41,337 nt of DNA from Candidatus Woesearchaeota archaeon (GCA_017610275.1 JAFCCI010000002.1:1-41337); one strand, 5' to 3'; positions 374 to 16,137 are shown, counted from the first letter of the stretch. Program-made: numbers and translations. The notes: generated by a model not told the origin, from the sequence alone.

Positions 374-1063
374 ATGAAAACAACAGCAATAATACTAGCA
401 GCAGGAAAGGCAAAAAGAATGATGACCCATAAAAATAAACTCTTCTTAGAGCTGCGAAAACCAATCTTAATACATTCAATAGAGGCATTTGAAAACCACA
501 AATTAATCAATGAGATAATAATTGTTGTAAACAAAAAGGATTTAGAAGCTTGCAGCAAGATTGTTGAAAAAAATATATTTAAAAAAATAAAAAAAATAAT
601 GGTTGGGGGTGAAACAAGGCAGCAGTCATCATACAATGGTGTTATGGAAGCAGATTCTGATATTATCCTTATTCATGATGGGGCAAGACCGCTTGTAACA
701 GAGGATTCCATAACAAACTCAATCAGGGACTCCTTAAATTATGGAGCTTCTGTTGTTGCAGTACCTCTAAAGGAAACTGTAAAAAAGATTGATAACTGTT
801 TTGTTCAAAACACCCTTGACAGAGATGCATTATGGGTTGCCCAAACCCCACAAACATTCAGGGCAGATATTATTAAAGAGGCGCATGAAACAGCAAAAAG
901 GGATGGTTTTTTTGGAAAAGATGATTCTTCATTAGTTGAAAGAATAGGTTATAAGGTTAGGATATGCAGGGGGCATTATGAAAATTTAAAGATAACAACA
1001 CCAGATGATTTGGTAATAGCAAAGCATATATTTAAGAAAAATAATGGTGATTATTATGATTAG
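374..1063 (+). CDS. ispD: 2-C-methyl-D-erythritol 4-phosphate cytidylyltransferase
   Basis: Motifs ILAAG..KRM, GGETRQQS, IHDGARP, QTPQ and KITTPDDL; MEP operon context. Confidence 0.96.
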   Translation: MKTTAIILAAGKAKRMMTHKNKLFLELRKPILIHSIEAFENHKLINEIIIVVNKKDLEACSKIVEKNIFKKIKKIMVGGETRQQSSYNGVMEADSDIILIHDGARPLVTEDSITNSIRDSLNYGASVVAVPLKETVKKIDNCFVQNTLDRDALWVAQTPQTFRADIIKEAHETAKRDGFFGKDDSSLVERIGYKVRICRGHYENLKITTPDDLVIAKHIFKKNNGDYYD

Positions 1064-1535
1064 GGTTGGTATTGGCCAGGATTCTCATAGATTTATAATA
1101 AAAGACCAAAAAAGCCTTGTTCTTGGTGGTGTAATAATCCCTGATGAAAAGGGCTTAGAAGGAAATTCTGATGGTGATGTTGTGCTGCATGCTATTTTCA
1201 ATGCCCTTAGCCAGGCTGTTGGCAAAAGATCAATAGGTGTCTATTCTGATAAGATGTGCAGAGAAGGAATTAAAGACAGCAGAAAATACCTAAAAGTGGC
1301 ATTGAAGATGGTCAAAGACACTGGTTACAGGGTAAATAATATTGGTGTGATGATTGAGGCAAAAAAACCAAGAATTGAGCCATATGCTGATGATATGAAA
1401 AAGAGCATAGCAGGTATATTAATGATAACACAGGACATGATTGGCATAACAGCCACTTCTGGCGAGGGTCTTACTGCCTTTGGCAGAGGCATGGGAATAC
1501 AGGTATTTGCAATAGCAACTGTTATTAGGTGTTAA
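1056..1535 (+). CDS. ispF: 2-C-methyl-D-erythritol 2,4-cyclodiphosphate synthase
   Basis: MIRVGIGQDSHR (DxH metal motif), SDGDVVLHA, ATSGEGL. Start moved to ATG 1056, 5 nt after a GGTGA RBS. Confidence 0.95.
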   Translation: MIRVGIGQDSHRFIIKDQKSLVLGGVIIPDEKGLEGNSDGDVVLHAIFNALSQAVGKRSIGVYSDKMCREGIKDSRKYLKVALKMVKDTGYRVNNIGVMIEAKKPRIEPYADDMKKSIAGILMITQDMIGITATSGEGLTAFGRGMGIQVFAIATVIRC

Positions 1536-1539
1536 TATA

Positions 1540-2406
1540 ATGGAAATAATCCAAAAGGCATATGCCAAAATCAACCTTTCCTTGGATATCATTAAGAGGA
1601 TTTCTTCTGGATATCATAAAATAGAATTTGTTATACAGGAACTTGAGCTGCATGATATAATTAAAATAAAGAAAATAGAGAAAGGAATCAAACTTAATTG
1701 CAATACTAATATTTGTCCAGCTAATGAAAACCTTGCTTACAAAGCAGCAGAGCTTCTTATTAAAAAATTTAAAATAAACAATGGTGTTGAAATAACTATT
1801 GAGAAGAATATCCCTATTGCATCTGGTCTTGGCGGAGGAAGTTCAGATGCTGCTGCAACATTAAAAGGCATGAATAAGCTCTTTAACCTAAATTTATCAG
1901 AGGAGGAATTAATTGAAATATCTGGCGATATTGGCATGGATGTTCCATTCTTTATTCTTGGCAGCACGGTTCACGTAACTGGCCGGGGGGAAAATGTCAA
2001 AAGAATAGAAACCATGCCCAATAACATTTACTTTGTTCTGGCAAAACCAAAGTTTAGTATTTCAACAGAATATGCTTATAATAATATTGATTATGAAAAA
2101 ACAGGCAAGCAGCTAAAAACAGCTGAGATGATTAATACAATCATGGAAAAAGATATTAAAAAAATTGCAGAGAATATGCATAATGATTTTGAATATTCTA
2201 CCTTTAGGGAATATCCAATTATTAATGAAATTAAGCAAAAAATGATAGAAAATAAAGCATTAAATGCACTGATGTCTGGCTCTGGCCCAACTGTTTTTGG
2301 GATAACCAAAGAGAAAGCTGTTGCAGAAAACATATGTAACAGTTTAAAAGAAGACCCTTATTTTAAGAAAAATATTGAGTTTGTTTGTGTAACACAAACA
2401 AGGTGA
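1540..2406 (+). CDS. ispE: 4-diphosphocytidyl-2-C-methyl-D-erythritol kinase (GHMP family)
   Basis: AKINLSL, IPIASGLGGGSSDAA (GHMP motif), MSGSGPTVF. Confidence 0.96.
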   Translation: MEIIQKAYAKINLSLDIIKRISSGYHKIEFVIQELELHDIIKIKKIEKGIKLNCNTNICPANENLAYKAAELLIKKFKINNGVEITIEKNIPIASGLGGGSSDAAATLKGMNKLFNLNLSEEELIEISGDIGMDVPFFILGSTVHVTGRGENVKRIETMPNNIYFVLAKPKFSISTEYAYNNIDYEKTGKQLKTAEMINTIMEKDIKKIAENMHNDFEYSTFREYPIINEIKQKMIENKALNALMSGSGPTVFGITKEKAVAENICNSLKEDPYFKKNIEFVCVTQTR

Positions 2407-2410
2407 AATT

Positions 2411-3217
2411 ATGAAAGTTATTTGTGCAGAAAACATGGGATTTTGTTCTGGAGTCAAGAGGGCATTGGATATGGTTTTAAATGAAAGAAATGCTTATACA
2501 TTAGGGCAATTAATACATAATCCACAGGTTGTTGAACTTCTTGAGAAAAAAGGAATTAAAGTTGTTAATTCAGTTGATGAAGCTGATAGAACCTTGATTA
2601 TAACTGCTCATGGGACACCAAAATCAAATATTGAAAAAGCAAAGAAGAAGGAATTAAGAATAATTGATACAACTTGCCCCCTTGTAAAAAGGGTTCATGA
2701 GCTTGCTGTGGAGTTTGACAAAAAAGAATACAAAATAATTTTATTGGGTGATAAGGAACACCAGGAAGTTAAGGGGACTGCAAGTAATGCAAAAGATGTT
2801 ACAATTATAAGTTCTGATGAAGAAGCAAGCAAAATGAAGTTGGATAAGGCTTGTTTCCTGTCCCAAACAACGCAGTCATTAGAAAAATTTAAAGAAATTG
2901 CTGATATATTAAAGAAAAATATTCCTGAACTGAAAATTTTTAATACAATATGTGATGCTACAAAGAAAAGGCAGGATTCAGCTATGAATCTTGCTAAAAA
3001 GGTTGATTTAATGATTATTATTGGCGGTTATAACAGTGCTAATACAAAAAGATTAAAGGAAATATGCAACAAGATAGTTGAGACAAAACACATCGAAAAA
3101 GCTGATGAAATTGATTTTGAATGGTTTAAAGATAAAAAAATAGTTGGATTGACAGCCGGAGCATCAACACCTGATCAGGTAATTAAGAGAGTTAAAGATA
3201 GAATAGAAAAGTATTAA
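2411..3217 (+). CDS. ispH: HMBPP reductase IspH/LytB
   Basis: Three cluster cysteines (GFCSGV, TTCPLV, TICDAT), plus HNP, SQTT, SANT and TAGASTP. Confidence 0.97.
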   Translation: MKVICAENMGFCSGVKRALDMVLNERNAYTLGQLIHNPQVVELLEKKGIKVVNSVDEADRTLIITAHGTPKSNIEKAKKKELRIIDTTCPLVKRVHELAVEFDKKEYKIILLGDKEHQEVKGTASNAKDVTIISSDEEASKMKLDKACFLSQTTQSLEKFKEIADILKKNIPELKIFNTICDATKKRQDSAMNLAKKVDLMIIIGGYNSANTKRLKEICNKIVETKHIEKADEIDFEWFKDKKIVGLTAGASTPDQVIKRVKDRIEKY

Positions 3218-3970: not shown

Positions 3971-5323
3971 TTAGTTTTTAATAAAAAAATTTATTTTATT
4001 TATGAGATTATTTGTTCTTTCTAGACCTTTCTGATAACCTAAGAGTTCATACCTATTTTTTATCATTGCCAATGGATTTTTTATAAGATAGTTGAGTCTT
4101 ATATCAGCACCTTTAATTCTTCCTGTTTTTTCTCCATATGCAATTTCTTCTTCATATTGACTGAGTTCTTGGTTAATCATTCCAACAGCATAGTTGAACT
4201 TATTATTTATCTCAAAATTAAGTTTATTTATTTTGGCAGTGTATTCATTAATTTGTTCTTCAAGCCTTTTTTCACTTTTCCAGTTGTTATAATTTTTTAT
4301 TTGCATTGTTTTTGCTTTAATTTCCTTGATTAATGATAATTCCTTATTTTGAAGTCCAAGATTAAGCAATGGATCAAGCTGCCTTTGTAAACTCTTAACC
4401 TTATATTTATCCTTGTTGATATTACCCTTTACATTTTCCAGGAGTATAAAGTAATCCTGTTTTTTCTTGTTTATTTGCTCTTCAATCTTATTCAGTTCTG
4501 AAAGCATCTTTGTGTTTCTAAAGCAGCTATACAAATACCTTAGGCTATTGTTCTTTGATATTAAATCTTCAAGCTTTTCCATGGTTCCGGGCTTTTCCCA
4601 GTTGTTAGCACGAAAAATGTTATTTACTAGTTTAAATTTAGTGTCTATTTTTTTTATTTCAGAATTTATTTTCTTTTTTGTATTTTCTTTAAGATTAACT
4701 ACCTGATTAAGAAGCAGCGTAATATCCTCCTTAAAGTAATTGTCATTTTGAAGTATCTGCATCTTTTCTGTTTCGGAATCAAGTTTCTCAATCATATCAT
4801 AAATCCTGTCTATTTTCTGTTTTGTGATATTTCCATTGAAGGTTATTTCAACAAGATTTTTGTTTTTTTGAATTTTTTCATTTAATTGGGTTTTTTCATG
4901 AATAAAATTAATTAATTGTTCACTGTTTTTAATATATTTTTTTTGAAAGTGTATTATTTCTCCTTTTTCAGCTATAGAATCAAAATTTTCATCAAACTTT
5001 TTGTTGAATTCAATTATTTTATTTAAGTTGTAAGAGTCATTGCATATCTTTTCTGCTATTGTTTCAAATGTCTCACCTTCCATTACCTGGTAATATCTTG
5101 AACTTTCAAATAAGATGTCCTGTTTCCTCTTAACTTTATAAGCTTCAACAGAACCATAACCAATAGATGTAATTATTAATAAACCAATAATTGCTTGTTT
5201 AATTTTTTTCTTAATAGAATTTATTTTTGACCCTTCATCATTTATCTTATTGCTTATTTTTCTGTCTAAATCATTAAATTTTGATTCAGTGTCCATTATG
5301 AGGCTTTCAAGTTTTGATTCCAT
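3971..5323 (-). CDS. Single-pass membrane protein with LysM domain and long coiled coil
   Basis: TM helix AIIGLLIITSIGYG; LysM-like YYQVMEGETFETIAEK...IIEFN; heptad-rich remainder. Confidence 0.7.
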   Translation of the reverse strand: MESKLESLIMDTESKFNDLDRKISNKINDEGSKINSIKKKIKQAIIGLLIITSIGYGSVEAYKVKRKQDILFESSRYYQVMEGETFETIAEKICNDSYNLNKIIEFNKKFDENFDSIAEKGEIIHFQKKYIKNSEQLINFIHEKTQLNEKIQKNKNLVEITFNGNITKQKIDRIYDMIEKLDSETEKMQILQNDNYFKEDITLLLNQVVNLKENTKKKINSEIKKIDTKFKLVNNIFRANNWEKPGTMEKLEDLISKNNSLRYLYSCFRNTKMLSELNKIEEQINKKKQDYFILLENVKGNINKDKYKVKSLQRQLDPLLNLGLQNKELSLIKEIKAKTMQIKNYNNWKSEKRLEEQINEYTAKINKLNFEINNKFNYAVGMINQELSQYEEEIAYGEKTGRIKGADIRLNYLIKNPLAMIKNRYELLGYQKGLERTNNLINKINFFIKN

Positions 5324-5324
5324 T

Positions 5325-6311
5325 TTATGTTTGGATTAATTCTTTAATTTTATTAAACTGATTACGATATTCTGATAACTCTTTTTTAGCAAATTCAAAT
5401 TTTCTCTCTCTTATGAATGGAGCAAAATAACTTTTCTTATTATTATCATTTAGATTGTATTTTTTCTCCAAATTAAACATATTTTTTCTTATTATTTCCA
5501 TACCTTCCACTGCTTTTTCGTTAAACAAATTCCTTAAATTCTGTATATGTGATTTATATTCCTCAAGAATAACTTTGTTTACAGCATAAATGGGTGATTG
5601 TAAATTAGTTGAAATATTCTTTTTTATATCATATAAAAGATAGATATCTTCTTCTGAGATTTTATATTGGTTAAGAAATATTCCTTTGATTTTTTTTATG
5701 TCCTTGCAAACATTATACAAATTTGCAAATTCAAGTGCTTTTTGTTCAGGATTTAATTCAGAATTAATTATCTTCTCTAAATGAGCTTTGTCAAGCATCG
5801 GCATCAGAACATCCATAAAAATTATTGCCTTTAAATCTTTTATATCATTGGATTGTTTTATTAAGCCCTTTATTTCATTATGATTTAATAATCCCATATA
5901 AGATGTAGAAAGAATTTCAAAATTCATGTCATTACAATACTTTAAAAGTGAATCAAATACTTTTGGTCTTTTATTGTATCTATGTTTTTCTTTTTCAACT
6001 AAGCCTATTGCACAATAATCAATTAAGGAATTTGAATCCTGTTTATTTAACAATTGGATAATTTCTTTTTTGTCTTTTTTGTCAAACCCAAGATAATAAT
6101 CAGATAAAATAGTATTCCTTAAGTCTGTAAAATCAACTTTTTCTTTAATTACCTCCTTTTTTAGATTGTCAATAAAATAATTTAATATTATATTGTCTTC
6201 AATTACATCAGAAATTCTTGTAAAATCAGGTTTTATAGTGCTTGCTATAGATTTAACTCTTTCTTCCAAACTTTTCTCTGAATTAAATTGATTTTCATCT
6301 TCTTTTTTGAT
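5325..6311 (-). CDS. Hypothetical helical protein (probable ATC start; ORF track uses TTG 6269)
   Basis: Operonic, 1 nt from the next gene. AGGTGA lies 6 nt before an in-frame ATC at 6311. Confidence 0.6.
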   Translation of the reverse strand: MKKEDENQFNSEKSLEERVKSIASTIKPDFTRISDVIEDNIILNYFIDNLKKEVIKEKVDFTDLRNTILSDYYLGFDKKDKKEIIQLLNKQDSNSLIDYCAIGLVEKEKHRYNKRPKVFDSLLKYCNDMNFEILSTSYMGLLNHNEIKGLIKQSNDIKDLKAIIFMDVLMPMLDKAHLEKIINSELNPEQKALEFANLYNVCKDIKKIKGIFLNQYKISEEDIYLLYDIKKNISTNLQSPIYAVNKVILEEYKSHIQNLRNLFNEKAVEGMEIIRKNMFNLEKKYNLNDNNKKSYFAPFIRERKFEFAKKELSEYRNQFNKIKELIQT

Positions 6312-6323
6312 CTTAACTCACCT

Positions 6324-7010
6324 TTACGATTTTCCATTTCTCCAGTAAATAAAATTTTCAGTGATTTCATTATCATCTAAAACCTTATATTTTCTATGAT
6401 GAATATTAAACTTGTTATAAGCAGGATCAACAAGAATAGGATTATTTTGGACATAAACAACAGCACATCCATGATTAACTTTTTTGTTATCACAATCAAC
6501 CTTAACACTTGCATACTTTGACTTTAGCCCTGCTGCCCGCGCCATTGTTATATAGAGAAAAGCCATCTCTCCGCAAATCCCTAATTTATTTTCTAAAGTT
6601 TCCTTTGAGTTTTGATATCTATTGTTATTCCTTAAATTATCATACTCTATATTTTGGTGTATCCAATTAAATATTCTTTTGGCTTTTTCCTCATCATCCT
6701 TTATATTAGTAGTATAATTCTTAATTATTTTTACAAGTTCAGAGTTTATTATAAAAGGGTTTTCAATGCTTTTATCAGCTAATAAAACATTATATCCCTT
6801 GGTAATATTATTAAGATTAAAATATGGAACAGATGGAACTTTATACTCTTTTTTGATTTTTTCAATGAGATATGTATTTTGATTATTCTTCCTAATATTT
6901 TTCAACTTATCTTCTGAATTCTTTCTTTTAATTTTGTTTAGAAGGTCATCACTATTTTTTCTCTGTGTTTTTCTTATGACTTTCCCATTTATTATTTCCC
7001 ACAAATTCAT
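6324..7010 (-). CDS. Transglutaminase-like (Cys-His-Asp) domain protein
   Basis: IFNWIHQNIEYD, GICGEMA, HGCAVV and VDPA give the transglutaminase-core triad. ATG 7010 lies just after the upstream gene's stop. Confidence 0.85.
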   Translation of the reverse strand: MNLWEIINGKVIRKTQRKNSDDLLNKIKRKNSEDKLKNIRKNNQNTYLIEKIKKEYKVPSVPYFNLNNITKGYNVLLADKSIENPFIINSELVKIIKNYTTNIKDDEEKAKRIFNWIHQNIEYDNLRNNNRYQNSKETLENKLGICGEMAFLYITMARAAGLKSKYASVKVDCDNKKVNHGCAVVYVQNNPILVDPAYNKFNIHHRKYKVLDDNEITENFIYWRNGKS

Positions 7011-7011
7011 T

Positions 7012-9276
7012 TTAACCTGAAGCATCGTAGAAAATTTTGTTGAATTCTTTTTGGAGTTGAGGGCTTAATTTGGATATATCATCAGAAAGAGTCTTACTCA
7101 ATTCAATTTTGGTATTGTCTTTAATTTTGTATTGGTCTTTTAGTTCATATGGTTTAAGAGAGCCCTTAGTTCCAGCATTTTTCAATGATCCTATATTGTA
7201 TTTTGTTCCAAACTCCCTAATCTTTTGCTGCCTGTTTTTTTGATTTTGATTACTTGCTGAGCTTTCATTAGCTGCATAAACTAATTCCCATAACCCTGGA
7301 TTTCCAGTTTCCTCATCCATAACCCCCCAAAGGGTATCTCCTTTTTGAATTACATACTCCCTTTTGTTATCTTGATTATTTATAGCTGTTTTGCCAATAT
7401 GCTGAGTGATATCCTCCCTAGTATAATTTACTTTGTTACCAGGATTGTAAACAACTAAAGGAATATTTTCTCTTTCTATAATCTGCTCTGCTTTTTTAGT
7501 TGACTGGATATCTTTAATTGAATTAATTCGCTTATGATTAGCATACATAAGTGATCCTGCCCCAATTGCAAGGGATAATACTCCTATAAGACCAATTTTC
7601 CAGTATTTTTTCACAGTCCTTTTTATGAAACTTTTTGTTTTTACAGAATAATCTCTCAAGGTGTTACTTATATAATTGAGTGGATTATATTTGATTATAT
7701 TTGGCGGCTCTTTTTTATTATTTTTTCTTCTCCAGTTCACATTATTTCCATTATTTTCATATTTATGAAGGATCCTGTAAAGTGTAGATGTGCTGAATTT
7801 TTTCTCTGGCTCATTTTCCCGCCTGTTTTTATTTAACTCACTGCGTAAATTCTTAACCTTAACATTTGTGTTATTATACAAATTAATAATATCTGCTTTA
7901 TACTCATCAGGAATCTTATTTGCTCTTTTTTCTATATTATAACCATTATTTTCTGCTTCCCTTAGAATTTTGTCAAGAGTATAATTATTGATATTATATT
8001 TGCTGCATATCTGTTTTCTGGTTAATTCTTTATAATTGTTATACTTATCTATAATCCCCTCTAGGTTATTATGCGGAGTTCTATGTACAACTTCATTTAT
8101 TTGAGGCTCAATAGTCTTTTTCTCTTCAGCTGAATTGTTTAATTTATTATCATATATTATTGCTGGCAATTGTTTTATATGTTCAGTTGGAGTCTCTTTT
8201 TTATATATATTCTTTTGTTCTTCACCTTTGTCTTTTAGCTTTTCTTCAGGAGTTTTTGTTATTATTTCTTCTAAGTTTTTATTCACTTCCTCATTTTTTT
8301 CAGAAGGCTTAACCACAATCATATTAAAATTATTAACCCTTGTTTCTACTCCACTTATGATTTTTCTTAATTCATAGTCTAATACTTTTCTAGTTGGAAG
8401 CTTTCCGTTATGGTGAACCCTTTTTGATACATGATCAACTAATTTTTTATAGTCTTCAAATTGAACGTTTCCATCATCTATAACCTCTAGAGCAACATCT
8501 TTTCCTTTTACATAATTTATTTTTTCATCTCCCTTCCCTTTATAAGAAACTTCTAAGTAAGGTTGTATATTTTTGCTGTTGGTTACCATGCTATAAGCAT
8601 ATGAAATTTTTATTGGGTCAGCTTTTTCAACTTTGGCTATTTTAACATCCTTAAGAAGAGGTATAATCTCTGAATTAATCTTATCTATTGACAACCTGAA
8701 AGAAGGACTATTGTTATTATTTTGATTTATTAATAAATAATTTTTACCATCTTTATTAGAATAATTTAAGTTATAACCTCCTTCCAAATTGTCTATATCA
8801 ACGAAATTGTCTATAGTAATTTTATTATTAGGGAACACACTATAAGAAACTCCTTTAAAATTTTCTCTGTCATCTGGAGAATGAAAAGGTCTATGATCCA
8901 GTCCATGGCTATGCCACCAGCCTATTATTTTAGACCCTCTTCTCTGAATTTTTTTGAATTCATTCATCTCAGAAGATGGATCACCAATACATTTTGAAGA
9001 TGTAACAGATTGGTTATGAGCTAAATATATATCATTAACAACATCTTTATTGGTTCCTTCTGGCGCAATTAAATAACCCATGGCTTCTACTGATTCATTA
9101 AATAATATTGGTGCTATCGTAGAATAAAAGTTTGCCTTTAATAAAGCACTTTTTTTTATTTTTAATTTTTTAATTAAATTATTATTATTATTATTATTTG
9201 AGTTTAGAGTACTATTTAAGTTGAAATGCTCTTCTTTTTTTAAAAGTAATTTCCTTATTTTATTTTTTATTGGCAT
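7012..9276 (-). CDS. JAB/MPN+ metalloisopeptidase - HTH-like repeats - TM helix - LysM fusion
   Basis: EAMGYL...GWWHSHGLDHRPFHSPDD (JAMM motif); LTRKQICSKYNINNYTLDKIL and FSTSTLYRILHKY (HTH-like); TM WKIGLIGVLSLAIGAGSLMYA; YVIQKGDTLW (LysM). Confidence 0.8.
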   Translation of the reverse strand: MPIKNKIRKLLLKKEEHFNLNSTLNSNNNNNNNLIKKLKIKKSALLKANFYSTIAPILFNESVEAMGYLIAPEGTNKDVVNDIYLAHNQSVTSSKCIGDPSSEMNEFKKIQRRGSKIIGWWHSHGLDHRPFHSPDDRENFKGVSYSVFPNNKITIDNFVDIDNLEGGYNLNYSNKDGKNYLLINQNNNNSPSFRLSIDKINSEIIPLLKDVKIAKVEKADPIKISYAYSMVTNSKNIQPYLEVSYKGKGDEKINYVKGKDVALEVIDDGNVQFEDYKKLVDHVSKRVHHNGKLPTRKVLDYELRKIISGVETRVNNFNMIVVKPSEKNEEVNKNLEEIITKTPEEKLKDKGEEQKNIYKKETPTEHIKQLPAIIYDNKLNNSAEEKKTIEPQINEVVHRTPHNNLEGIIDKYNNYKELTRKQICSKYNINNYTLDKILREAENNGYNIEKRANKIPDEYKADIINLYNNTNVKVKNLRSELNKNRRENEPEKKFSTSTLYRILHKYENNGNNVNWRRKNNKKEPPNIIKYNPLNYISNTLRDYSVKTKSFIKRTVKKYWKIGLIGVLSLAIGAGSLMYANHKRINSIKDIQSTKKAEQIIERENIPLVVYNPGNKVNYTREDITQHIGKTAINNQDNKREYVIQKGDTLWGVMDEETGNPGLWELVYAANESSASNQNQKNRQQKIREFGTKYNIGSLKNAGTKGSLKPYELKDQYKIKDNTKIELSKTLSDDISKLSPQLQKEFNKIFYDASG

Positions 9277-9277
9277 T

Positions 9278-10789
9278 TTATTTCTTATAAAAATCTTGGC
9301 TGCAAGGACAACCCTTTCTTGGATTTCTTATATGATTTCCTAAGATAATTCGATTAGCTGAAAGAGAATTATAGTATATACTATCCCTTATTGTAAAACC
9401 ATAAACTTCTGGGTAAAATATTTTCTTGACTTCTCCAACAATCATTGCACTAATTATCTGGTTTGACATAACAACACTTGGATCATGGTTATCTGCAATA
9501 CAACTAGTCGGGGTAATATCATTTTCTTTAGCCTCCTTTTGTGCCAGTAAATACACATTCTTATGGCAATCTATACAAGCAGTTTTTCCAGGATTATATA
9601 CACTAACCTGTCCTGAAAAAGGTTCTGTTCCTGCATCTATATATGGAATCTTATTTTTTACAGCTATTTTATTAATAAAAGCCCTAGTGGTAAAAGTATC
9701 GACTCCCCCTATAATTAAATCACAATTAAGTTTTAGAAGTTCTGACTCACCGATAAGTTTTACCCCTTGGCTTCTTTCATTTTCATTAAGATATTCACCT
9801 ACCTTTCCATATAATCCTTTAATATTAATATTAGGGTTTATGTTCTTCAAAGCTTTAGAAAGCACGTCTACTTTTCTTTTGCCTATATTATTTTCAAAAT
9901 TATAAAGAATTTGTCGATTTGGATTAGTAGCATCTACTTCATCCATATCAATCATATATATTTGATTTATTCCTAAAAGGGATAATCCTAAACCAACAAA
10001 ATTTCCTACTGCTCCTGCACCTATCATTACAATTTTTTTATCCTTAAATAAATCTTTTTCATTAAGATAACAGTCAAAATTAAGAGTTATGTCTGATTTG
10101 TCCTCAAATCTTTTATTTGATAATAAATTATAAGTTACTGCTTTTTTTAGTAATTTATCATTTGGTTTTAATTTAAGAATAGATTTTCTAATCTCTTCTG
10201 TAGCCAATCCACCAATGAGCCCATTAGGTATGTTTCCCTGTTTGGAGTTTTCAAAATCTAAAAATAAATAATCTTCTATAGTTTTTGAATTATTGTTTTT
10301 TGATAAAAGGATTTTTTCTACTTGATTCATTGGTTCATAAACCATTATCTTTCCTTTGTTTTCGCTTGTAGAAGCAGTAATTAAAGGTATTCTTAACCTA
10401 TCTGAAAGTTTTAGACTATTCAATTTTGAGCTCGGTTTGTTTGTAAGATCAACTAAAACATTTGGTTTTCCTATTAAATCATAAAAAGGCTCAGAATGTA
10501 TGCCCAACACATTAATATTTTCATTCATCTGAGAGATTATTTTTTCAAGGTGCTTAACCTTACTTATTTTTTCCTTTTTTTTATAGTAGTTAAAAAAAAG
10601 AAATTCATTAATGTCATTGTGATAATAGTTATTATCAATAATTCTTATATTTCCAACTTGCAATCCTGTAAGATTAGCTAAAACAAAATTACATAAAGAA
10701 CCAGCCCCTATTATTGTTACAAGAGAACCATCTAACTTTTTTTGGTCCCAATTTGTTATTCTTTCTTGTCTATCGGTCCTTTCTGAAAT
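9278..10789 (-). CDS. E1-like activating enzyme with tandem ThiF domains (degenerate N-terminal, active C-terminal); probable ATT start
   Basis: The frame extends 42 codons upstream of TTG 10663 as ISERTDRQERITNWDQKKL..VTIIGAGSLC. The C-terminal domain has IGAGAVG, DMDEVDATNPNRQ, GVDTF, CIDC, TSC and CPC. Confidence 0.88.
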   Translation of the reverse strand: MSERTDRQERITNWDQKKLDGSLVTIIGAGSLCNFVLANLTGLQVGNIRIIDNNYYHNDINEFLFFNYYKKKEKISKVKHLEKIISQMNENINVLGIHSEPFYDLIGKPNVLVDLTNKPSSKLNSLKLSDRLRIPLITASTSENKGKIMVYEPMNQVEKILLSKNNNSKTIEDYLFLDFENSKQGNIPNGLIGGLATEEIRKSILKLKPNDKLLKKAVTYNLLSNKRFEDKSDITLNFDCYLNEKDLFKDKKIVMIGAGAVGNFVGLGLSLLGINQIYMIDMDEVDATNPNRQILYNFENNIGKRKVDVLSKALKNINPNINIKGLYGKVGEYLNENERSQGVKLIGESELLKLNCDLIIGGVDTFTTRAFINKIAVKNKIPYIDAGTEPFSGQVSVYNPGKTACIDCHKNVYLLAQKEAKENDITPTSCIADNHDPSVVMSNQIISAMIVGEVKKIFYPEVYGFTIRDSIYYNSLSANRIILGNHIRNPRKGCPCSQDFYKK

Positions 10790-11636
10790 TTATACCACCA
10801 AACAGTTTTTTCTTTCTTTTATGCATTATAAGTTTGTCATCGCTGATTAATTTTGTTTTTAGCTCTTCTAATATTCCATGGTAATCTAAAATCTCCTTAT
10901 CGGATATTATTTCTTTAAGTTTAACATCTTTTTTTATGATTACCTCCTTTTCAGGATATTTAATAGCTATCTCAGCGTAAGGAAGCATAGAATAAAAGCG
11001 ATTAAAAACAAGACTATAAGCAAAAGACACACCCCTATATTTTTTTCTTCTAATACTCTTTACCCCAAGGGTTACTAGCTTTGAAAGATTATTTACCTCT
11101 ATTTCAACATAATCTTCAAAAGGATTTGATCCCTTTACAATAAGGTATTTTTTACCATCATCTTCTTTATTATAGTTTACTTTTAGTGGACCATCCAATA
11201 ACTGAATTATTTCTCTTTTTAACGCTTTTTTATTATGTGGAAAAACTGCTAGATAAAGATTTTTGAAATTATCATCATCATCTGGTGAATGAAAAGGATG
11301 AGATTGGGCATGACTATGCCACCACCCCATTATCTTATAACCTTTATTTTCAATTTCCTTTATTGCATCCATATCAGTTCCCACCTCAGCACTATAATGT
11401 GTACTTTCTACATTCTGTTTATTTGACAAAAAAATATCTTTTACAATACAATCATCATCATTCTTTGGTGTTATAAGATAACCGCCGCACTCAAGCGGTT
11501 TCCTGAAAATCTTGCAAGCTAATGAAGAATATGCTTTTGCTTTTTTGTAAGCATAGTCAGTTATAGGTACCTCATTCAGAAAATCTTTTGTCTTATTTTT
11601 TAATTTGTTTTCTAAAATATATTTTATTTTATCCAT
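10770..11636 (-). CDS. Stand-alone JAB/MPN+ metalloisopeptidase
   Basis: ECGGYL (catalytic Glu) and GWWHSHAQSHPFHSPDD (HxH-x7-S-xx-D); GGAGGT RBS. Confidence 0.88.
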   Translation of the reverse strand: MDKIKYILENKLKNKTKDFLNEVPITDYAYKKAKAYSSLACKIFRKPLECGGYLITPKNDDDCIVKDIFLSNKQNVESTHYSAEVGTDMDAIKEIENKGYKIMGWWHSHAQSHPFHSPDDDDNFKNLYLAVFPHNKKALKREIIQLLDGPLKVNYNKEDDGKKYLIVKGSNPFEDYVEIEVNNLSKLVTLGVKSIRRKKYRGVSFAYSLVFNRFYSMLPYAEIAIKYPEKEVIIKKDVKLKEIISDKEILDYHGILEELKTKLISDDKLIMHKRKKKLFGGINFRKDR

Positions 11637-11644
11637 CTTACCTC

Positions 11645-12913
11645 CTATTTGAATTTATTTGTAACCGGAATATGTTCCCTATTCAGTTCTTCTAAACTAA
11701 TTAGATTATCCCCAAAGTTTTCTTTATTTAACACTAAATGGGGCATCAAATCACCAAAATAACCTGATCTTAAGGCTGGTTCACCAATCTCCTTTAGAAG
11801 GTAGCATACTTTTTCAGCAATCTTGCCTTTTTTATCAAATTCATTTAGTTTTTTACTTACCTCTTCTTTTCTATACTTATCACCATAACAAATTCTTTGT
11901 TCACTTACATTTTTAGTGGGAATTAAAGGATGAGAATATATATCAATTATAACTGGATAACCAACTTCAATCTTATTTTTTTTTGGTGTTAGTTCAACTC
12001 CTAACTTACATTTTTCAAATTTATAATATTCATCAGTCTTAAGCGATTTAAGGGCAAATGGTTTTTCCTTAATAAAAACATAAAAATGGTTATAACTATT
12101 TTTATTTGTTTTTAAGAAACCTATATTTCCTTCTTCATAACATCTTTTATTTACTATACTCAGAAAATTGTCTCTTTGTTTAAGCAGTTGGATTCTTTCG
12201 GTTAATTTCTGTGAGCCATAATCCGCAGCTTTAGTTATCTCAGTAAATAATAATTTTGAGTATTCATTTTCTAAATTCTTTAAGTTCTTTATGAAACTAT
12301 ATGAATAACATGAATTATTTATTTTAAATTTGTTTCTTATTTTTTGATAAAATGTTTTAGGTATTTTTTTGATTTCATATACATTACCATTAGAGATAAG
12401 TATGTTGTTTTTTATTATACCCCTTTCTAGCATGGAGTATTCCCTATTTAAAATATATTCAAAACCATCTTTAGTATTTTTATAGTTATAACTATTTTCT
12501 TTTAATTCTAAAATCTTAAGGATTTTTTTATTTAATTTTTTTTTATGATTCACTTTTTTTTTCTTTTTCTTATGGTTAACTAAAGGAAAAATTTCCCCAA
12601 CAGCAAAATTAATAAGTTCATATTCATTCTTCAATTTATTTATATCTTTTTTTATTAATTGACTTTCTTCTGATTTTGTTTTGGTTAGATTATTAAAAAT
12701 ATCTTTAAATTCATTTTCATTGTTTTTAAAATAAATCATTTCAAGAGATTTTAGAGTTTCCGATTCCTTTAGATTATATTTATTATTAAGCATATAAAAA
12801 AAGCTATTGCCCTCTTCAACCTTAGGCTCAACTGTATAAAGCCTATTGTTCACGATAAGGCAAAGCTTAGATTCTTCTGCAATACTAATAAATAAGGGTT
12901 TTGGGAGATTCAT
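11645..12913 (-). CDS. Putative E2/UBC-like conjugating protein with a duplicated N-terminal module
   Basis: C-terminal PVIIDIYSHPLIP-x8-ICYG resembles the UBC P....YHPN....IC signature. Lies between the candidate Ubl and the JAB/E1 genes. Confidence 0.5.
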   Translation of the reverse strand: MNLPKPLFISIAEESKLCLIVNNRLYTVEPKVEEGNSFFYMLNNKYNLKESETLKSLEMIYFKNNENEFKDIFNNLTKTKSEESQLIKKDINKLKNEYELINFAVGEIFPLVNHKKKKKKVNHKKKLNKKILKILELKENSYNYKNTKDGFEYILNREYSMLERGIIKNNILISNGNVYEIKKIPKTFYQKIRNKFKINNSCYSYSFIKNLKNLENEYSKLLFTEITKAADYGSQKLTERIQLLKQRDNFLSIVNKRCYEEGNIGFLKTNKNSYNHFYVFIKEKPFALKSLKTDEYYKFEKCKLGVELTPKKNKIEVGYPVIIDIYSHPLIPTKNVSEQRICYGDKYRKEEVSKKLNEFDKKGKIAEKVCYLLKEIGEPALRSGYFGDLMPHLVLNKENFGDNLISLEELNREHIPVTNKFK

Positions 12914-12914
12914 A

Positions 12915-13349
12915 TTACTTCAATAGAATATAATCCAGCCCAGAAGAACCCTCTGGTGTTACATGAACTTCCAGATCAAGTCCTTTATACACTTTTTCAT
13001 CAATAGATTTTGGTTCAAAATAATCTTTTGCTATTTCTGTTGGACTTATTAATTCTTGAGTTTCACCATTTCTATTTTGAAAATATTTGTACTCTCCATC
13101 ACTATCTAACGCTTTTATTCCTAACATTTTTTTAGGTCTTTTTGATTCTTCTAAAACGTTTTCTACACTACCCATTACTTCTTTTTCTGTTTCATTAAAA
13201 CCATTATCTTTTATTAGGTATTTTATTAAATCATTCATTGTCAAATTTGGTTCACCATACAACTTCTCACTTACATCTTTAACTATTGCATCTGTTTGTG
13301 TTATTGGACACTTTATACTTGCAATATATGTTTCTTTTTCATCTGCCAT
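12915..13349 (-). CDS. Small protein, candidate ubiquitin-like modifier (precursor with tail after PEG/SG)
   Basis: First gene of the E2-JAB-E1 operon; ends LDLEVHVTPEGSSG-LDYILLK; paralog at 16188-16607. Confidence 0.45.
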   Translation of the reverse strand: MADEKETYIASIKCPITQTDAIVKDVSEKLYGEPNLTMNDLIKYLIKDNGFNETEKEVMGSVENVLEESKRPKKMLGIKALDSDGEYKYFQNRNGETQELISPTEIAKDYFEPKSIDEKVYKGLDLEVHVTPEGSSGLDYILLK

Positions 13350-13395
13350 TTTTTACCTCCAAAAATGTTTAATTTTAATTAATAAGAAGAATTTC

Positions 13396-13436
13396 TTTTT
13401 TATATGCATTTCCGATAAAAAAGAGGTATTTTTCCG
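13396..13436 (-). promoter_or_regulatory. 41-bp island promoter element, copy 1 (32/41 identical to copy 2)
   Basis: Minus strand CGGAAAAATACCTCTTTTTTATCGGAAATGCATATAAAAAA, upstream of the Ubl-E2-JAB-E1 operon. Confidence 0.6.
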
Positions 13437-13524: not shown

Positions 13525-14592
13525 TCACGAAAGATAATCATCCATTCTATTACCTGAATTTTCAACCCTGTTAAGTTGGGTTGTTATGATATTATCTGCT
13601 AGTTTTCTAATTCCAGGATGTGTTCCTAAATAATAGCTGTTAAGTATATTTGGATTGTTTGCAATGGATCCCATATTTTTTAGACCGTCATTTAATTTTT
13701 CATGCAAATCATTTGAATAATTACCTAACATAGCAACAGATTCATATAATACGTTGATAATCCTGCCTTCTGATATAAGAGTACCCCATTGTTTTTTTGT
13801 ATTTCTAACATAACGTAAGATCCCACTTGTTTTATCACCAATTATTTCACAAACTTCTATTCCTGTAGTAAGCATATCTTCAAGATCATTAAGAATTTCA
13901 TCTTCTTTAGACCTATCACCTATCTTATTAGCTGCACGATTTTTTTGGTGTATAACTGTTCTTGATTTTCTTTCCGCATTCTTATATCCCTTTTTAAAAA
14001 TAAAAAATTTATTATCACCTTTTTTTGTTGATTTAATTCTCTCTCCTGATTCTAAGTAAACTTCATTCAACTCTGGTTCCATTTTTTTTAATTTATTATA
14101 AGTTTTTGTGCTATCAGCCCATTCTTCAAGTATACTATCCCTATAAATTATTAATTCTTTTAATTGTTTTTTTGAATCAAAAATAATGCTTTTTAGCCCT
14201 GAATTCATATTTGATATATTGTTTAGTTGTTTATCAAATATATCTTCTATTGAGTATAGCTCCTTACCAAATATTTTTGATTTGATAAAGTCCACTGAAC
14301 TTACATAAATTTTGTAAGGAATTGGTTTACCAGCAAGGAGTTTTCTATTCATCTCTAAGTTTAATTTAGCTATATCTTTTATATTTTCTTCTAATCCAAC
14401 AAAATCAGATCCATTTGAAGATATTCTTGAATTTTTTAGATTATATACAATTGAATTTTCTTCTGGAAAATAATCATTTTTATGCTCATTTTTTAAAAAC
14501 CCATACTTTTCAAGTTTTTGAATTAATAAATCTTGATTGCCCATTTGCTTTTGACTATTTGCTTTAATTTTTTTTATTAAATTTTCATCCAT
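13525..14592 (-). CDS. Hypothetical coiled-coil/helical protein
   Basis: Long amphipathic helices; ATG 14592 follows an AGGTGA RBS; third gene of a three-gene unit. Confidence 0.65.
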   Translation of the reverse strand: MDENLIKKIKANSQKQMGNQDLLIQKLEKYGFLKNEHKNDYFPEENSIVYNLKNSRISSNGSDFVGLEENIKDIAKLNLEMNRKLLAGKPIPYKIYVSSVDFIKSKIFGKELYSIEDIFDKQLNNISNMNSGLKSIIFDSKKQLKELIIYRDSILEEWADSTKTYNKLKKMEPELNEVYLESGERIKSTKKGDNKFFIFKKGYKNAERKSRTVIHQKNRAANKIGDRSKEDEILNDLEDMLTTGIEVCEIIGDKTSGILRYVRNTKKQWGTLISEGRIINVLYESVAMLGNYSNDLHEKLNDGLKNMGSIANNPNILNSYYLGTHPGIRKLADNIITTQLNRVENSGNRMDDYLS

Positions 14593-14614
14593 TTTTTTCA
14601 CCTTTATAGTTTTA

Positions 14615-14851
14615 TTATTTCTTGTCTTTTGGATAATATAATGTCAGGCTTTTTTCAAGCCCATCAAGTTGAATTGTATCTTCCATGACTTTTTTATCGA
14701 CAGTTTGGTAATAAGCAGGTTTTGTATAACTAATGTCTTTTTTTATTTCATTATTTATGTCTATTTTTTCACATCCTCCACCCATATAATATCCAATTGA
14801 GAATATCGCAAAATACTTCAATAATTTAAAGCCGAATCTGATAAGCCCCAT
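14615..14851 (-). CDS. Small putative lipoprotein / exported protein
   Basis: Basic N-terminus, hydrophobic stretch, then MGGG-C (lipobox-like); GGGGTGA RBS. Confidence 0.55.
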   Translation of the reverse strand: MGLIRFGFKLLKYFAIFSIGYYMGGGCEKIDINNEIKKDISYTKPAYYQTVDKKVMEDTIQLDGLEKSLTLYYPKDKK

Positions 14852-15358
14852 TCACTGCTCACCCCTTTCAAAATAATCATTGACTTTCTTTTCAAGGTTT
14901 TTGTAAAACTCCTTGACTTTTGGTTTTTGTTCTTCAGCAAAATCTACAATTTTATTGTATGTACTATCAATTTTTTCACTGATTAATGGCTTTATTATCC
15001 TGAGCTTTCTCTCATTAGACATCTCGCTTATTCTTTTCTCAAGAAGATCATCGCTGAACATGTCTGCTATTTCTTTGTCATAGTTGTTTTCAATACCAAT
15101 TTTGCTTATATCTAGAATATAATTCTTGAATTCTTCAGGATTTTTGCTGATAATCCCTTTTGTATACCCAAAAAGCTCATCCATATTTTTCCCGGCAATG
15201 CCATACCTTGGCTGCTCTTGTTTTTCAGTCACCACAATCACCTTCTCCTGCACAACAGGTTTTGTTTTCTCTGTTTTTCCACATCCAGCACCAAGGTAGC
15301 TTGTTGCTGCAATCGCTCCTGTCAAAAACAAAATTCCAATTGTTCTTTTTAATCCCAT
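14852..15358 (-). CDS. Putative lipoprotein
   Basis: MGLKR, hydrophobic core, LGAG-C lipobox-like motif. Confidence 0.65.
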   Translation of the reverse strand: MGLKRTIGILFLTGAIAATSYLGAGCGKTEKTKPVVQEKVIVVTEKQEQPRYGIAGKNMDELFGYTKGIISKNPEEFKNYILDISKIGIENNYDKEIADMFSDDLLEKRISEMSNERKLRIIKPLISEKIDSTYNKIVDFAEEQKPKVKEFYKNLEKKVNDYFERGEQ

Positions 15359-15483: not shown

Positions 15484-16137
15484 CTAAGCATTGTTTTTAT
15501 TTTGAGCTATAAAACAATAATAATCCCTGCTGTCTTTCCAGATTTTGAGAATTTTGAAATTATGGTAATGTTTTTTTATAACTTTTTTATTATAGATAAA
15601 GTGAGTTAATCCCTTCTCATTGCCCATTGTTGGAACATATGTTCTTGGAGCTATTTTTTTAGCTGTCTTAATAAGATAATCCCTAACCTTGCCATTGGAA
15701 ATCCTTCCGCTAAGTGTTATAAAAATAAGCCCTCCTGGCTTCAGCACCCTTTCAATCTCTTTTATTGCACCTTTTATTTCATTGACTTTGCCATGCTGTA
15801 AGACCTGGACACTAATCACTGCATCAAAAAAATTATCTTCATAAGGAAGCTTATTTAATACATTGCCTAATTTAAGGCTGCATTTTCTTTCCTTTTTTAA
15901 CCTCTTTTTGATGATTTCCAGCCCTTCAGGCGCACAATCGATGCCATATACATCAAAGCCTTTTTCCAATAAATAAACAAGATTCCTGCCAGCACCACAA
16001 CCCAAGTCGAGAACTCTTTTAATCTTTTGTTTTTTAAAGATAGTTAATATATTGGACATATCTTCATGCGGTTTGAATATATTATAATACCCATACTTTT
16101 TACCTTCTTTTTTGTATATTTCATCCCATTGAAGCAT
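15484..16137 (-). CDS. Class I SAM-dependent methyltransferase
   Basis: VLDLGCGAGRN, LPYEDNFFDAV, RVLKPGGLI. Confidence 0.93.
   Translation of the reverse strand: MLQWDEIYKKEGKKYGYYNIFKPHEDMSNILTIFKKQKIKRVLDLGCGAGRNLVYLLEKGFDVYGIDCAPEGLEIIKKRLKKERKCSLKLGNVLNKLPYEDNFFDAVISVQVLQHGKVNEIKGAIKEIERVLKPGGLIFITLSGRISNGKVRDYLIKTAKKIAPRTYVPTMGNEKGLTHFIYNKKVIKKHYHNFKILKIWKDSRDYYCFIAQNKNNA

Follow-up and report, generated by a model that had tools for sequence, protein, structure and literature searches.

Complete conjugation cascades composed of a ubiquitin-like protein (Ubl), an E1, an E2, and a deubiquitinase (DUB) are found in eukaryotes, in a few eukaryote-like archaeal operons, and, as recognized recently, in the bacterial defense systems Bil, Bub, and CBASS (cyclic-oligonucleotide-based antiphage signaling system). 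The archaeal operons in question, those of Caldiarchaeum and the Asgard archaea, encode ubiquitin, E1, E2, RING, and Rpn11 proteins of eukaryote-like type; archaeal SAMPylation, to our knowledge, possesses no E2. In Bil, a virion protein is tagged, and the host is thereby protected from viruses. Here we report on a row of co-oriented genes in a 41,337-nt stretch of DNA (hereafter, the window) from Candidatus Woesearchaeota archaeon (GCA_017610275.1 JAFCCI010000002.1:1-41337), whose four-gene core encodes a Ubl precursor, an E2-like protein, a JAB metallopeptidase, and an E1 (Table 1). This core probably represents a Bil-like Ubl-E2-JAB-E1 conjugation cascade of a new sequence family, with its genes in the order known from BilABCD. 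A protein-conjugation pathway had been put forward in an earlier note on this DNA; the Ubl fold, the enzyme motifs, and the synteny speak for it, and for the E2 step the proposal draws on weak fold matches.

As reported for Bil, the system consists of a Ubl, an E2, a JAB-type DUB, and an E1 with an inactive and an active adenylation domain; the DUB exposes a conserved glycine that precedes nine residues or fewer, and a helical CYS domain of about 80 amino acids sits within the E1 crossover loop (10.1101/2023.09.26.559546). The E2-like proteins of the group designated 6d lack the classical histidine, according to Iyer et al. (2006; PMC1779556). The Bub system is reported to operate through oxyester intermediates and to possess an E1 that is devoid of a catalytic cysteine and fused to a peptidase, together with the serine protease BubE.

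The protein encoded by the first of the core genes is, judged from its predicted structure, a ubiquitin-like precursor with a conserved C-terminal glycine and a candidate removable tail. A search of 1.84 billion representatives returned 17 relatives of this 144-aa protein, and the AlphaFold2 (AF2) model built on their alignment has a beta-grasp fold with a helical insert (predicted local distance difference test [pLDDT] 86.1; predicted template-modeling score [pTM] 0.82). Sequence and profile searches of the Protein Data Bank (PDB) gave no relevant match for this protein. When the model was compared with known structures by VIA, the best match had a Z score of 6.3, and the list consisted mostly of ubiquitin-like folds (ubiquitin, FAT10, and Bacillus subtilis YukD), with Haloferax volcanii SAMP1 at Z 5.1 and chain 8tyz_B of a bacterial Bil E1-E2-Ubl complex at Z 4.9; in VIA, Z scores below 8 may reflect a common arrangement, and the argument for a Ubl lies in the uniformity of the list. 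The top rows of a Foldseek search were likewise Ubl domains (best E 0.023, the Ubl domain of TBCB). The earlier note had staked its proposal on a beta-grasp fold in this protein, and such a fold is what the confident model and both lists point to.

As described in that note, the window Ubl ends in P-E-G plus a tail (...LDLEVHVTPEG-SSGLDYILLK). At the same position, four genus-mates read ...RKGG[SF]GL[DE]YIL[SL]K and one reads ...RKAGSRLDYILSK. Since the window protein has G-S in place of the G-G of its relatives, the end of the mature Ubl, Gly134 or Gly137, is uncertain. For a comparison across relatives, we used a synteny set of 34 fetched loci with 37 E2-like open reading frames (ORFs), counting neighbors within 6 kb on the same strand. 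An ORF of 100-260 amino acids lies directly upstream of 27 of the 37 E2-like ORFs. Within their last 25 residues, 17 of these 27 small ORFs carry GG, in comparison with 12 of 197 for the remaining ORFs in that size range from these loci. The GG is typically placed 5-6 residues past a hydrophobic strand, like the end of ubiquitin, and is followed by a tail of 0-17 residues. A second Ubl paralogue is encoded farther upstream in the row; it ends in ...LNLELMCCPAPDGERTK and has no GG at its C-terminus (...PAPDGERTK). Four same-genus loci possess this paralogue at the same place, three with the ending ...MRHMD/MRHID and one with exactly ...YARG; it may not be conjugatable, or may be handled differently.

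A single protein as query detected the E2-like family in 16 of 61 relatives. A profile of 13 sequences detected it in 50 of 401 genomes and 45 of 280 genera of a phylum sample, with up to five matches per genome. The DPANN origin assumed earlier is supported by the label 'Nanoarchaeota archaeon' on the records of the relatives, some of which bear other labels from their submitters, and by the archaeal Cbf5 and L31e proteins encoded within the window. In the synteny set, an E1 gene is present near 30 and a JAB gene near 27 of the 37 E2-like ORFs, and several of the exceptions are located at contig ends. The genes follow one another as Ubl-E2-JAB-E1 or Ubl-E2-E1-JAB, and in many cases the stop of one overlaps the start of the next. 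A search for related loci with one alignment returned only five, all of the same genus. Conserved synteny in relatives had been named beforehand as decisive for the proposal, and E2-like, JAB, and E1 genes do occur together across many genera. By its occurrence in these genomes, the cassette is an accessory, patchy, and sometimes multi-copy module of Nanoarchaeota-labeled DPANN genomes.

Several side observations concern the cassette in other genomes. One genome (G016) has five E2-like matches, and in some of the loci L023 (10419-11366), L062, L050, and L018, either the small upstream ORF or the E2-like gene is duplicated in tandem; the small ORFs of L023 are without Gly near their end. The transglutaminase-like protein discussed below is encoded beside the cassette in six loci. 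A ClpX-like AAA+ protein (AAA_2 plus ClpB_D2-small) is encoded next to it in L022 (2473-3627) and L045 (13921-15384), and Ser/Thr protein kinases in L020 (14073-15458) and L047 (14769-16424), all of them loci from other families of the order; these ATPases and kinases may be effectors or regulators of tagging.

Of the other explanations that we considered, a housekeeping role survives best, and we still judge it unlikely. The Ubl would then mark proteins for the proteasome, Cdc48, or a Clp-type unfoldase, as in SAMPylation or Urm1 conjugation, instead of taking part in conflict or in signaling at the envelope, and one can point to the AAA+ genes adjoining the cassette in L022 and L045, to a Cys-to-Asp paralogue of the E2 core whose gene this genome carries at a distance of two genes from one for Cdc48, and to the housekeeping genes that flank the locus. 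However, the cassette was not found in 4 of the 10 genomes of the genus (87-93% complete) and is present in just those 50 of 401 genomes of the phylum sample, a distribution unlike that of a core proteostasis system, and AAA+ neighbors occur in few loci.

The enzymes encoded next to the E2-like gene look active by their motifs. The 288-aa protein reaches 38.3 bits against Prok-JAB (cut-off 25), which agrees with the JAB earlier assigned to the third gene, and its E...HxH...S..D motif is intact (E49 in 35 of 35 sequences; H107, H109, S117, and D120 in 34 of 35). The NCBIfam desampylase model matches it with E 1.4e-6, under the cut-off of that model. We regard this protein as a candidate for both Ubl processing and deconjugation. 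The E1 carries two Pfam ThiF stretches (E 1.4e-49), as expected from its earlier description as a double-ThiF protein. In its C-terminal domain, G257, G259, G262, D281, R292, Q293, K306, and D364 are invariant in 30 of 30 sequences; the candidate thioester residue Cys430, placed in a short crossover loop, is present in 29 of 30; and a zinc site formed by C405, C408, C494, and C496 (CxxC pairs with a C-terminal CxC) is kept in 21-25 of 30. The N-terminal ThiF domain has G28 as its only invariant residue, like an inactive adenylation domain. NEDD8 E1 (UBA3, 4e-18) and MccB (about 9e-18) lead the PDB sequence matches of the E1, with PaaA at 1.1e-12 and Citrobacter BubCD at 1.9e-4. Against NCBIfam, it lies far under every equivalog cut-off, those for UbaA, MoeB, and ThiF included (SAMPActivE1UbaA, 64.1 versus 450 bits).

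We take the E1 to begin at ATT 10789, which gives a protein of 503 amino acids. The frame is open to this codon, and the 42 residues gained over the first canonical start carry a Rossmann-type G-x-G that includes the invariant G28. In five genus-mates (L013-L017), the JAB frame closes with ...GVI-TAA, and the very next codons, ATT CCA GAG, already belong to the E1, in the same frame; at its JAB/E1 junction (10757-10800), the window has the same TAA-ATT, with the JAB in another frame that overlaps the E1 by 20 nt. In all six genomes, GGTG is found 6 nt upstream of the ATT, and neither ATG nor GTG nor TTG occurs at the conserved E1 N-terminus. The position of the ATT also fits the Met of distant E1 homologues. 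An ATT directly after the TAA looks like a non-canonical start or a case of termination-reinitiation. Two alternatives were considered. A start at TTG 10663 is rejected because of the conservation of the 42 residues upstream of it, the invariant G28 among them. A JAB-E1 fusion through read-through of the TAA is less likely because no fused JAB-E1 ORF was seen among the fetched loci; moreover, the frames differ in the window.

The 233-aa protein encoded downstream in the row had been called a transglutaminase-like cysteine protease, and this description holds: it scores 63.2 bits against Transglut_core (PF01841; cut-off 23), and its triad of C151, H185, and D200 is present in 8 of 8 sequences. 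It gave nothing in PHROGs. By these motifs it is a candidate for a second (cysteine) deconjugase or a transamidase.

The 422-aa protein has no match in Pfam (none with E ≤ 1, so no UQ_con match), PADLOC, NCBIfam, or PHROGs, and neither its sequence nor its profile gave a row with E ≤ 10 against PDB sequences. A protein search yielded 6 relatives, a word-based profile search also 6, and whole-genome searches many more; among shorter proteins, no homologue of the C-terminal region was found. The members of the family range from 340 to 600 amino acids in size and share 15-27% identity within one order. They possess a conserved core that reads Tyr-x-His-Pro, 7-14 residues, [Ile/Val]-Cys-x-Gly, and Gly-Tyr about 40 residues later, and the HP...IC motif noted earlier is part of it. 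His328 is conserved in 35, and Pro329 and Cys342 each in 36, of 37 sequences. Several members read HPFVHSNGSIC or HPFVYSDNIIC and so come near HPN-x-x-x-x-G-x-IC, the signature of classical E2s; the family keeps HP-x(7-14)-[IV]C, with the classical Asn replaced by Phe or Leu.

The N-terminal region of about 250 amino acids is conserved in the family (e.g., Pro110) and has no predicted fold, and the C-terminal region of about 170 amino acids forms the candidate UBC/RWD-like core (UBC, ubiquitin-conjugating). The AF2 model has a pLDDT of 45 overall and block means of 53-84 over residues 255-420, where the chain passes through helices and a beta-meander to the His-Pro loop and the Cys, with helices again after it. 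In a full VIA scan, the best Z score was 4.5, and 28 of 50 rows were by title E2/UBC, ubiquitin E2 variant (UEV), UFC1, or RWD entries; they include Citrobacter BubB (9eav_D, Z 4.2), Cap2 (7to3, Z 4.0), and CdnG-E2. Eleven further rows (kinetochore, FANCL, FTS, and BRISC proteins) are presumably also of RWD or UEV type. In the ESM Atlas, the C-terminal part is matched by viral 'hypothetical' clusters at 0.92 and by one cluster at 0.90 in which 11% of the members carry Prok-E2_D, which we treat as a lead only. A predicted complex of the E1, Ubl(1-134), and E2-like(205-422) scored 0.03 against a mark of 0.32, a value that counts neither for nor against binding. With regard to the UBC fold proposed earlier, the list dominated by UBC, UEV, and RWD entries speaks in its favor, and the low Z scores, the poor model, and the noise in Foldseek do not. 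Taken together with the motif, the C-terminal part is likely a UBC-superfamily core with Cys342 as the candidate catalytic residue.

A stand-alone 152-aa paralogue of this core is encoded elsewhere in the genome (G000:C53:25477-25938, minus strand; L044 8478-8936), in which the Cys is replaced by Asp (YSHPLL...QPIDLG). By its sequence, it would be a UEV-like inactive variant, and it is located two genes from the gene for a Cdc48-type double-AAA ATPase (L044 5410-7674).

One may ask whether the 422-aa protein itself is such a non-catalytic protein, that is, an adaptor or scaffold of RWD, UEV, or other type, with an E1 that acts alone as in SAMP/UbaA or serves sulfur transfer. The weak fold evidence, the missing sequence match to E2 families, the RWD and UEV entries that score as high as true E2s in VIA, and the existence of a Cys-less paralogue would all agree with this. 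Yet, Cys342 is retained in 36 of 37 sequences at a fixed place after the His-Pro, the gene is adjacent to those for the E1 and the JAB, the E1 scores far under the cut-offs for UbaA, MoeB, and ThiF noted above, and the two-domain E1 was not found in the genus-mates without the cassette; we therefore hold this explanation to be improbable. Very improbable is a third one, in which the E1 resembles MccB and PaaA in adenylating and modifying a peptide, the cluster makes a modified peptide or protein for secretion, the JAB and transglutaminase-like proteins are maturation proteases, and the surface proteins serve export or immunity: MccB and PaaA are indeed among the top matches of the E1, and the cluster contains membrane or lipoprotein-like genes, but NEDD8 E1 scores equally well, the candidate substrate is a folded 144-aa beta-grasp protein with GG and a tail in relatives and not a short peptide, Pfam and NCBIfam scans found no transporter gene in the row, and the cassette lacks membrane partners outside the genus.

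Several points weigh against the interpretation of the core as a Bil-like cascade. The window Ubl has G-S where its relatives have G-G, and one genus-mate has A-G; the second Ubl paralogue is without a C-terminal GG, and three of its relatives are without any terminal Gly. A tie of the 422-aa protein to any E2 family at the sequence level was not found in Pfam, PADLOC, NCBIfam, PHROGs, or the PDB, and its fold is called from a poor model (pLDDT 45) with Z scores of 4.5 or less, a range that VIA itself deems unreliable. Foldseek of the whole model against the PDB gave no row with E ≤ 0.001 and a heterogeneous list. The E1 is without the CYS domain of about 80 residues that is described for Bil; there are 22 residues from Cys408 to Cys430. 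The locus is situated between housekeeping genes and not in a recognizable defense island, PADLOC gave no match beyond the CBASS-type JAB and E1-E2 models, and no target or E3 was identified.

If the core is nevertheless the Bil-like cascade that we favor, it might operate as follows. The 144-aa beta-grasp protein would be made as a precursor with a C-terminal tail, which the JAB metallopeptidase would trim so that a C-terminal Gly is exposed (about Gly134 here; GG in most relatives). In the pseudo-dimeric E1, the active ThiF domain, which is the C-terminal one, would adenylate the carboxylate and take it as a thioester on Cys430, and the Ubl would then be handed to Cys342 in the UBC-like core of the 422-aa protein. 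The fast-diverging, conserved N-terminal half of that protein would probably select the targets, which would make it an E2 with a built-in E3-like part. The Ubl would be joined to lysines of the targets, and the JAB, perhaps also the transglutaminase-fold cysteine protease, would reverse the mark. A role in conflict or defense, by analogy with Bil, would fit because the distribution is patchy, accessory, and sometimes multi-copy, and because divergence is fast (15-27% identity within one order).

The core is part of a longer gene row. On the minus strand, eight genes form an unbroken row from 13349 to 3971, and all eight co-oriented ORFs of the earlier note exist at the positions it gave; the row extends beyond these limits to 16613 (Table 1). 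Gaps of 12 nt or less had been claimed. With the E1 start at ATT 10789, the spacing is 1, 8, -20 (overlap), 1, -14 (overlap), 54, and 1 nt, so that the claim applies to six of the seven junctions; the 54-nt gap separates the transglutaminase-like gene from the 314-aa gene, the first canonical start of which is TTG 6269. With canonical starts only, the E1 would begin at TTG 10663 and be preceded by a 106-nt gap. The organism is uncultured; no RNA sequencing runs holding the stretch were listed, and DNA runs gave only small-share rows.

Table 1. Genes of the row in the window, listed in the direction of their transcription
Feature	Coordinates	Strand	Supporting observation
Second Ubl paralogue, 141 aa	16188..16613	-	Ubl-family hidden Markov model, E 3.2e-33
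S-adenosylmethionine-dependent methyltransferase, backbone	15484..16137	-	Methyltransf_11, E 1.5e-23
168-aa backbone protein, lipoprotein-like look	14852..15358	-	Hydropathy 1.67 at residue 7, then ...GAGC
78-aa backbone protein	14615..14851	-	Hydrophobic N-terminus, then ...GGGC; conserved in same-genus loci
358-aa protein, family unrecognized	13525..14601	-	No library match
Ubl precursor (predicted), 144 aa	12915..13349	-	Beta-grasp model with helical insert
E2-like protein, 422 aa	11645..12913	-	His-Pro...Cys core; UBC/RWD-like structural matches
JAB/JAMM metallopeptidase, 288 aa	10770..11636	-	Prok-JAB, E 1.3e-9
E1, 503 aa from ATT 10789	9278..10789	-	Two ThiF matches
JAB-HTH-TM-LysM-like fusion, 754 aa (HTH, helix-turn-helix; TM, transmembrane segment)	7012..9276	-	Prok-JAB, 27.2 bits; TM hydropathy peak; HTH and LysM below threshold
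Transglutaminase-fold Cys-His-Asp protein, 233 aa	6324..7025	-	Transglut_core, E 3.2e-17
314-aa protein, family unrecognized	5325..6269	-	No library match
450-aa backbone protein with LysM-like stretch	3971..5323	-	NCBIfam PRK11198 LysM, E 0.0077

In the row, the 144-, 314-, and 358-aa proteins, like the 422-aa protein, have no match in Pfam, PADLOC, NCBIfam, or PHROGs, and the 314-aa protein gave nothing useful in the ESM Atlas. The PADLOC matches in the row are confined to the CBASS-type 'JAB' and 'E1-E2' models. The flanking genes that we inspected comprise those for IspD, IspF, IspE, IspH, and UppS on the left and for a Lit-like protein, Cbf5, and L31e on the right; among them, no ThiS/MoaD-type biosynthesis genes are found near the cassette, in line with the earlier statement. 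The left flank contains IspD, IspF (YgbB), GHMP kinase (IspE-like), and IspH/LytB genes in a row (374-3217, plus strand). They belong to the bacterial-type methylerythritol phosphate pathway of isoprenoid synthesis, in an otherwise archaeal-looking genome (Cbf5 with DKCLD/PUA, L31e), and the row is kept in genus-mates. The Lit-like protein (19313-19933, minus strand; Pfam Lit, lipoprotein intramolecular transacylase, E 1.2e-15) is unexpected for an archaeon, and it is possible that it is relevant to the lipoprotein-like proteins of the cluster.

Within the genus, six genomes (our own, G004, G005, G006, G008, and G009) carry both the E2-like gene and their only ThiF gene; neither was found in G001, G002, G003, and G007, which are 87-93% complete. 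In these four genomes, the same locus persists between UppS and the methyltransferase and holds the 450-aa and 168-aa proteins, relatives of the 314-aa protein (shorter, and unmatched in G003) and of the 358-aa protein, and a frame of 321-367 amino acids. Neither of the two Ubls was found in it, nor were the E2-like and transglutaminase-like proteins, the 288-aa JAB, and the E1. The 754-aa protein of the window is made up of a JAB module (about residues 1-304, of which about 47-304 are paralogous to the 288-aa JAB; cut-off for Prok-JAB, 25 bits), a linker, a probable HTH (about 410-530), a TM segment (561-579; hydropathy peak 2.07 at residue 561), and a LysM-like stretch (about 633-672). The 321-367-aa frame aligns to residues 430-753 only, the HTH-TM-LysM-like part, with 37-43% identity. 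Within this genus, the JAB module is fused to the HTH-TM backbone protein only where the cassette is present. By these alignments, the cassette is inserted in the middle of a conserved backbone, and since the JAB-less homologue aligns to residues 430-753 only, the 754-aa protein is to be seen as a duplicated JAB module fused to a backbone membrane protein.

The 450-aa protein is encoded in every same-genus locus examined; it has a weakly hydrophobic segment (45-61, hydropathy 1.64), a LysM-like stretch (about 72-115), and then a long region. The 168-aa protein is conserved throughout the same-genus comparison, whether or not the cassette is present, and its N-terminus could be read as a lipobox. 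The methyltransferase is also present in the four genomes without the cassette and is probably outside the system. Homologues of the 358-aa protein in the E2-less genomes of the genus share 24-42% identity with it, and weaker relatives are found beside transglutaminase or E2-like genes in L021, L049, and L050. Relatives of the 314-aa protein lie beside the cassette in L051 and L061 and weak ones in L020 and L047; its C-terminal region of about 110 amino acids is kept in the E2-less backbone.

The domain assignments of the two large surface proteins fare unequally. In the 754-aa protein, described earlier as JAB-HTH-TM-LysM, the JAB module exceeds its cut-off and the TM peak is clear, and the HTH (HTH_54, 19.3 versus 32.3 bits; NCBIfam IS481 N-terminal region, E 1.3e-4) and LysM assignments are below threshold. 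The Pfam LysM model (PF01476; gathering cut-off 20.9) gives 12.2 and 12.7 bits for the window proteins and 13.4-17.6 bits for orthologues, with partial matches that cover model positions 1-12 or 1-28 of 43. These weak matches recur at the same positions in orthologues, and only two LysM candidates were reported genome-wide. For the 450-aa protein, the TM segment is marginal and the Pfam LysM match of the protein and its orthologues (E 0.0038-0.21) is under the cut-off. The extracellular glycan signal of the earlier note depends on these sub-threshold LysM matches. The link to surface proteins that it also drew is well supported within the genus, where the JAB fusion tracks the cassette and is the strongest evidence for such a coupling, and is confined to it: a TM segment is predicted in 0 of 23 JAB proteins of the other fetched loci, so that the surface link is peculiar to this genus and no general trait of the family.

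The fusion of a duplicated JAB with an HTH-TM-(LysM-like) protein makes it probable that, in this genus, attachment or removal of the Ubl is tied to what happens at the envelope. A much bolder reading, which we put forward as a rather improbable one, takes the cassette as the cytoplasmic arm of a trans-envelope signaling system and, jointly, the DPANN E2-like family as an independent archaeal E2 lineage. A membrane-tethered HTH protein with an outside glycan-binding (LysM-like) domain would have captured its own JAB deconjugase, and contact with the cell wall of a host or prey would control removal or attachment of the Ubl, plus gene expression via the HTH. If this were true, it would be a ubiquitin-like circuit by which an episymbiotic archaeon senses its partner, and an E2-like family with the classical His-Pro...Cys would be relevant to the origin of eukaryotic ubiquitination.

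Independently of this bolder reading, a distinct cassette in about one-eighth of the sampled Nanoarchaeota-labeled genomes would add a third archaeal type of complete cascade, one with a Ubl family and an E2-like family that Pfam, NCBIfam, PADLOC, and PHROGs do not detect. In genomes of about 1 Mb, an investment of 4 to 13 genes must pay off. The small and simple proteins would lend themselves to the study of how E2 catalysis proceeds when neither the classical Asn nor a separate E3 is present, and the presence or absence of the cassette within one genus, together with the fusion of a JAB to a membrane HTH protein, offers a handle on the use of the tagging. The cassette is thus relevant to ubiquitin evolution, archaeal defense, and DPANN biology.

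In our search of the literature, we found no description of a Ubl-E1-E2-JAB system in DPANN archaea, Nanoarchaeota, or Woesearchaeota, which agrees with the earlier note; the supplementary operon lists of the Bil and Bub studies lay outside this search. Among the known systems, CBASS Cap2/Cap3 shares with the cassette an E1 that matches the PADLOC 'E1-E2' model (best E 8.4e-15), a JAB that matches the PADLOC 'JAB' model, and the structural match of the E2-like protein to Cap2 (Z 4.0). It differs in that the cassette has a separate Ubl and no E1-E2 fusion, and no nucleotidyltransferase was seen among the scanned cluster proteins. The operons of Caldiarchaeum and the Asgard archaea resemble it in their modifier, E1, E2, and JAB and in the His-Pro...Cys arrangement; however, the scanned proteins gave no Pfam ubiquitin, UQ_con, or RING match, and the E1, a short pseudo-dimer, resembles MoeB rather than UBA1. 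With SAMP/UbaA and the Urm1-type systems, the cassette has in common its archaeal modifier, a beta-grasp protein with Gly at the C-terminus, as well as an E1 of the ThiF type and a desampylase-like JAB, whereas an adjacent E2-like gene, a two-domain E1 (64.1 versus 450 bits), and accessory occurrence in the genus set it apart.

Bub (BubA/B/CD/E) comes closer, as a Ubl/E2/E1 operon whose BubCD protein matches the E1 (E 1.9e-4) and whose BubB protein is matched by the E2-like model (Z 4.2). In contrast to what is reported for Bub, the cassette keeps the Cys in the E1 (29 of 30) and in the E2-like protein (36 of 37) and has its peptidase as a separate JAB; among the fetched loci, there was no ORF that matched both JAB and E1 in the manner of the Bub-type fusion. 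Because these Cys residues are kept, the cassette is, by its sequence, not Bub-like in chemistry.

The closest likeness is to BilABCD (types I and II; 6c/6d of Iyer and colleagues), with differences in five respects. The host here is archaeal (DPANN), and the Ubl and the E2-like protein have no detectable relation to any library family; the E2-like protein is 340-600 amino acids long in its family and has a large conserved N-terminal domain. In contrast to the E2-like proteins of group 6d, as Iyer and colleagues present them, it keeps the His-Pro before the Cys, and the E1 of the cassette has a short crossover loop instead of the CYS domain. The likeness extends to four parts in the same order of Ubl, E2 (here, E2-like), JAB DUB, and E1, to an E1 whose N-terminal adenylation domain is inactive and whose C-terminal one is active (here, the catalytic set is found in the C-terminal domain only), to a Ubl with a short tail past a conserved Gly, to the adjacent JAB, and to a sporadic distribution.

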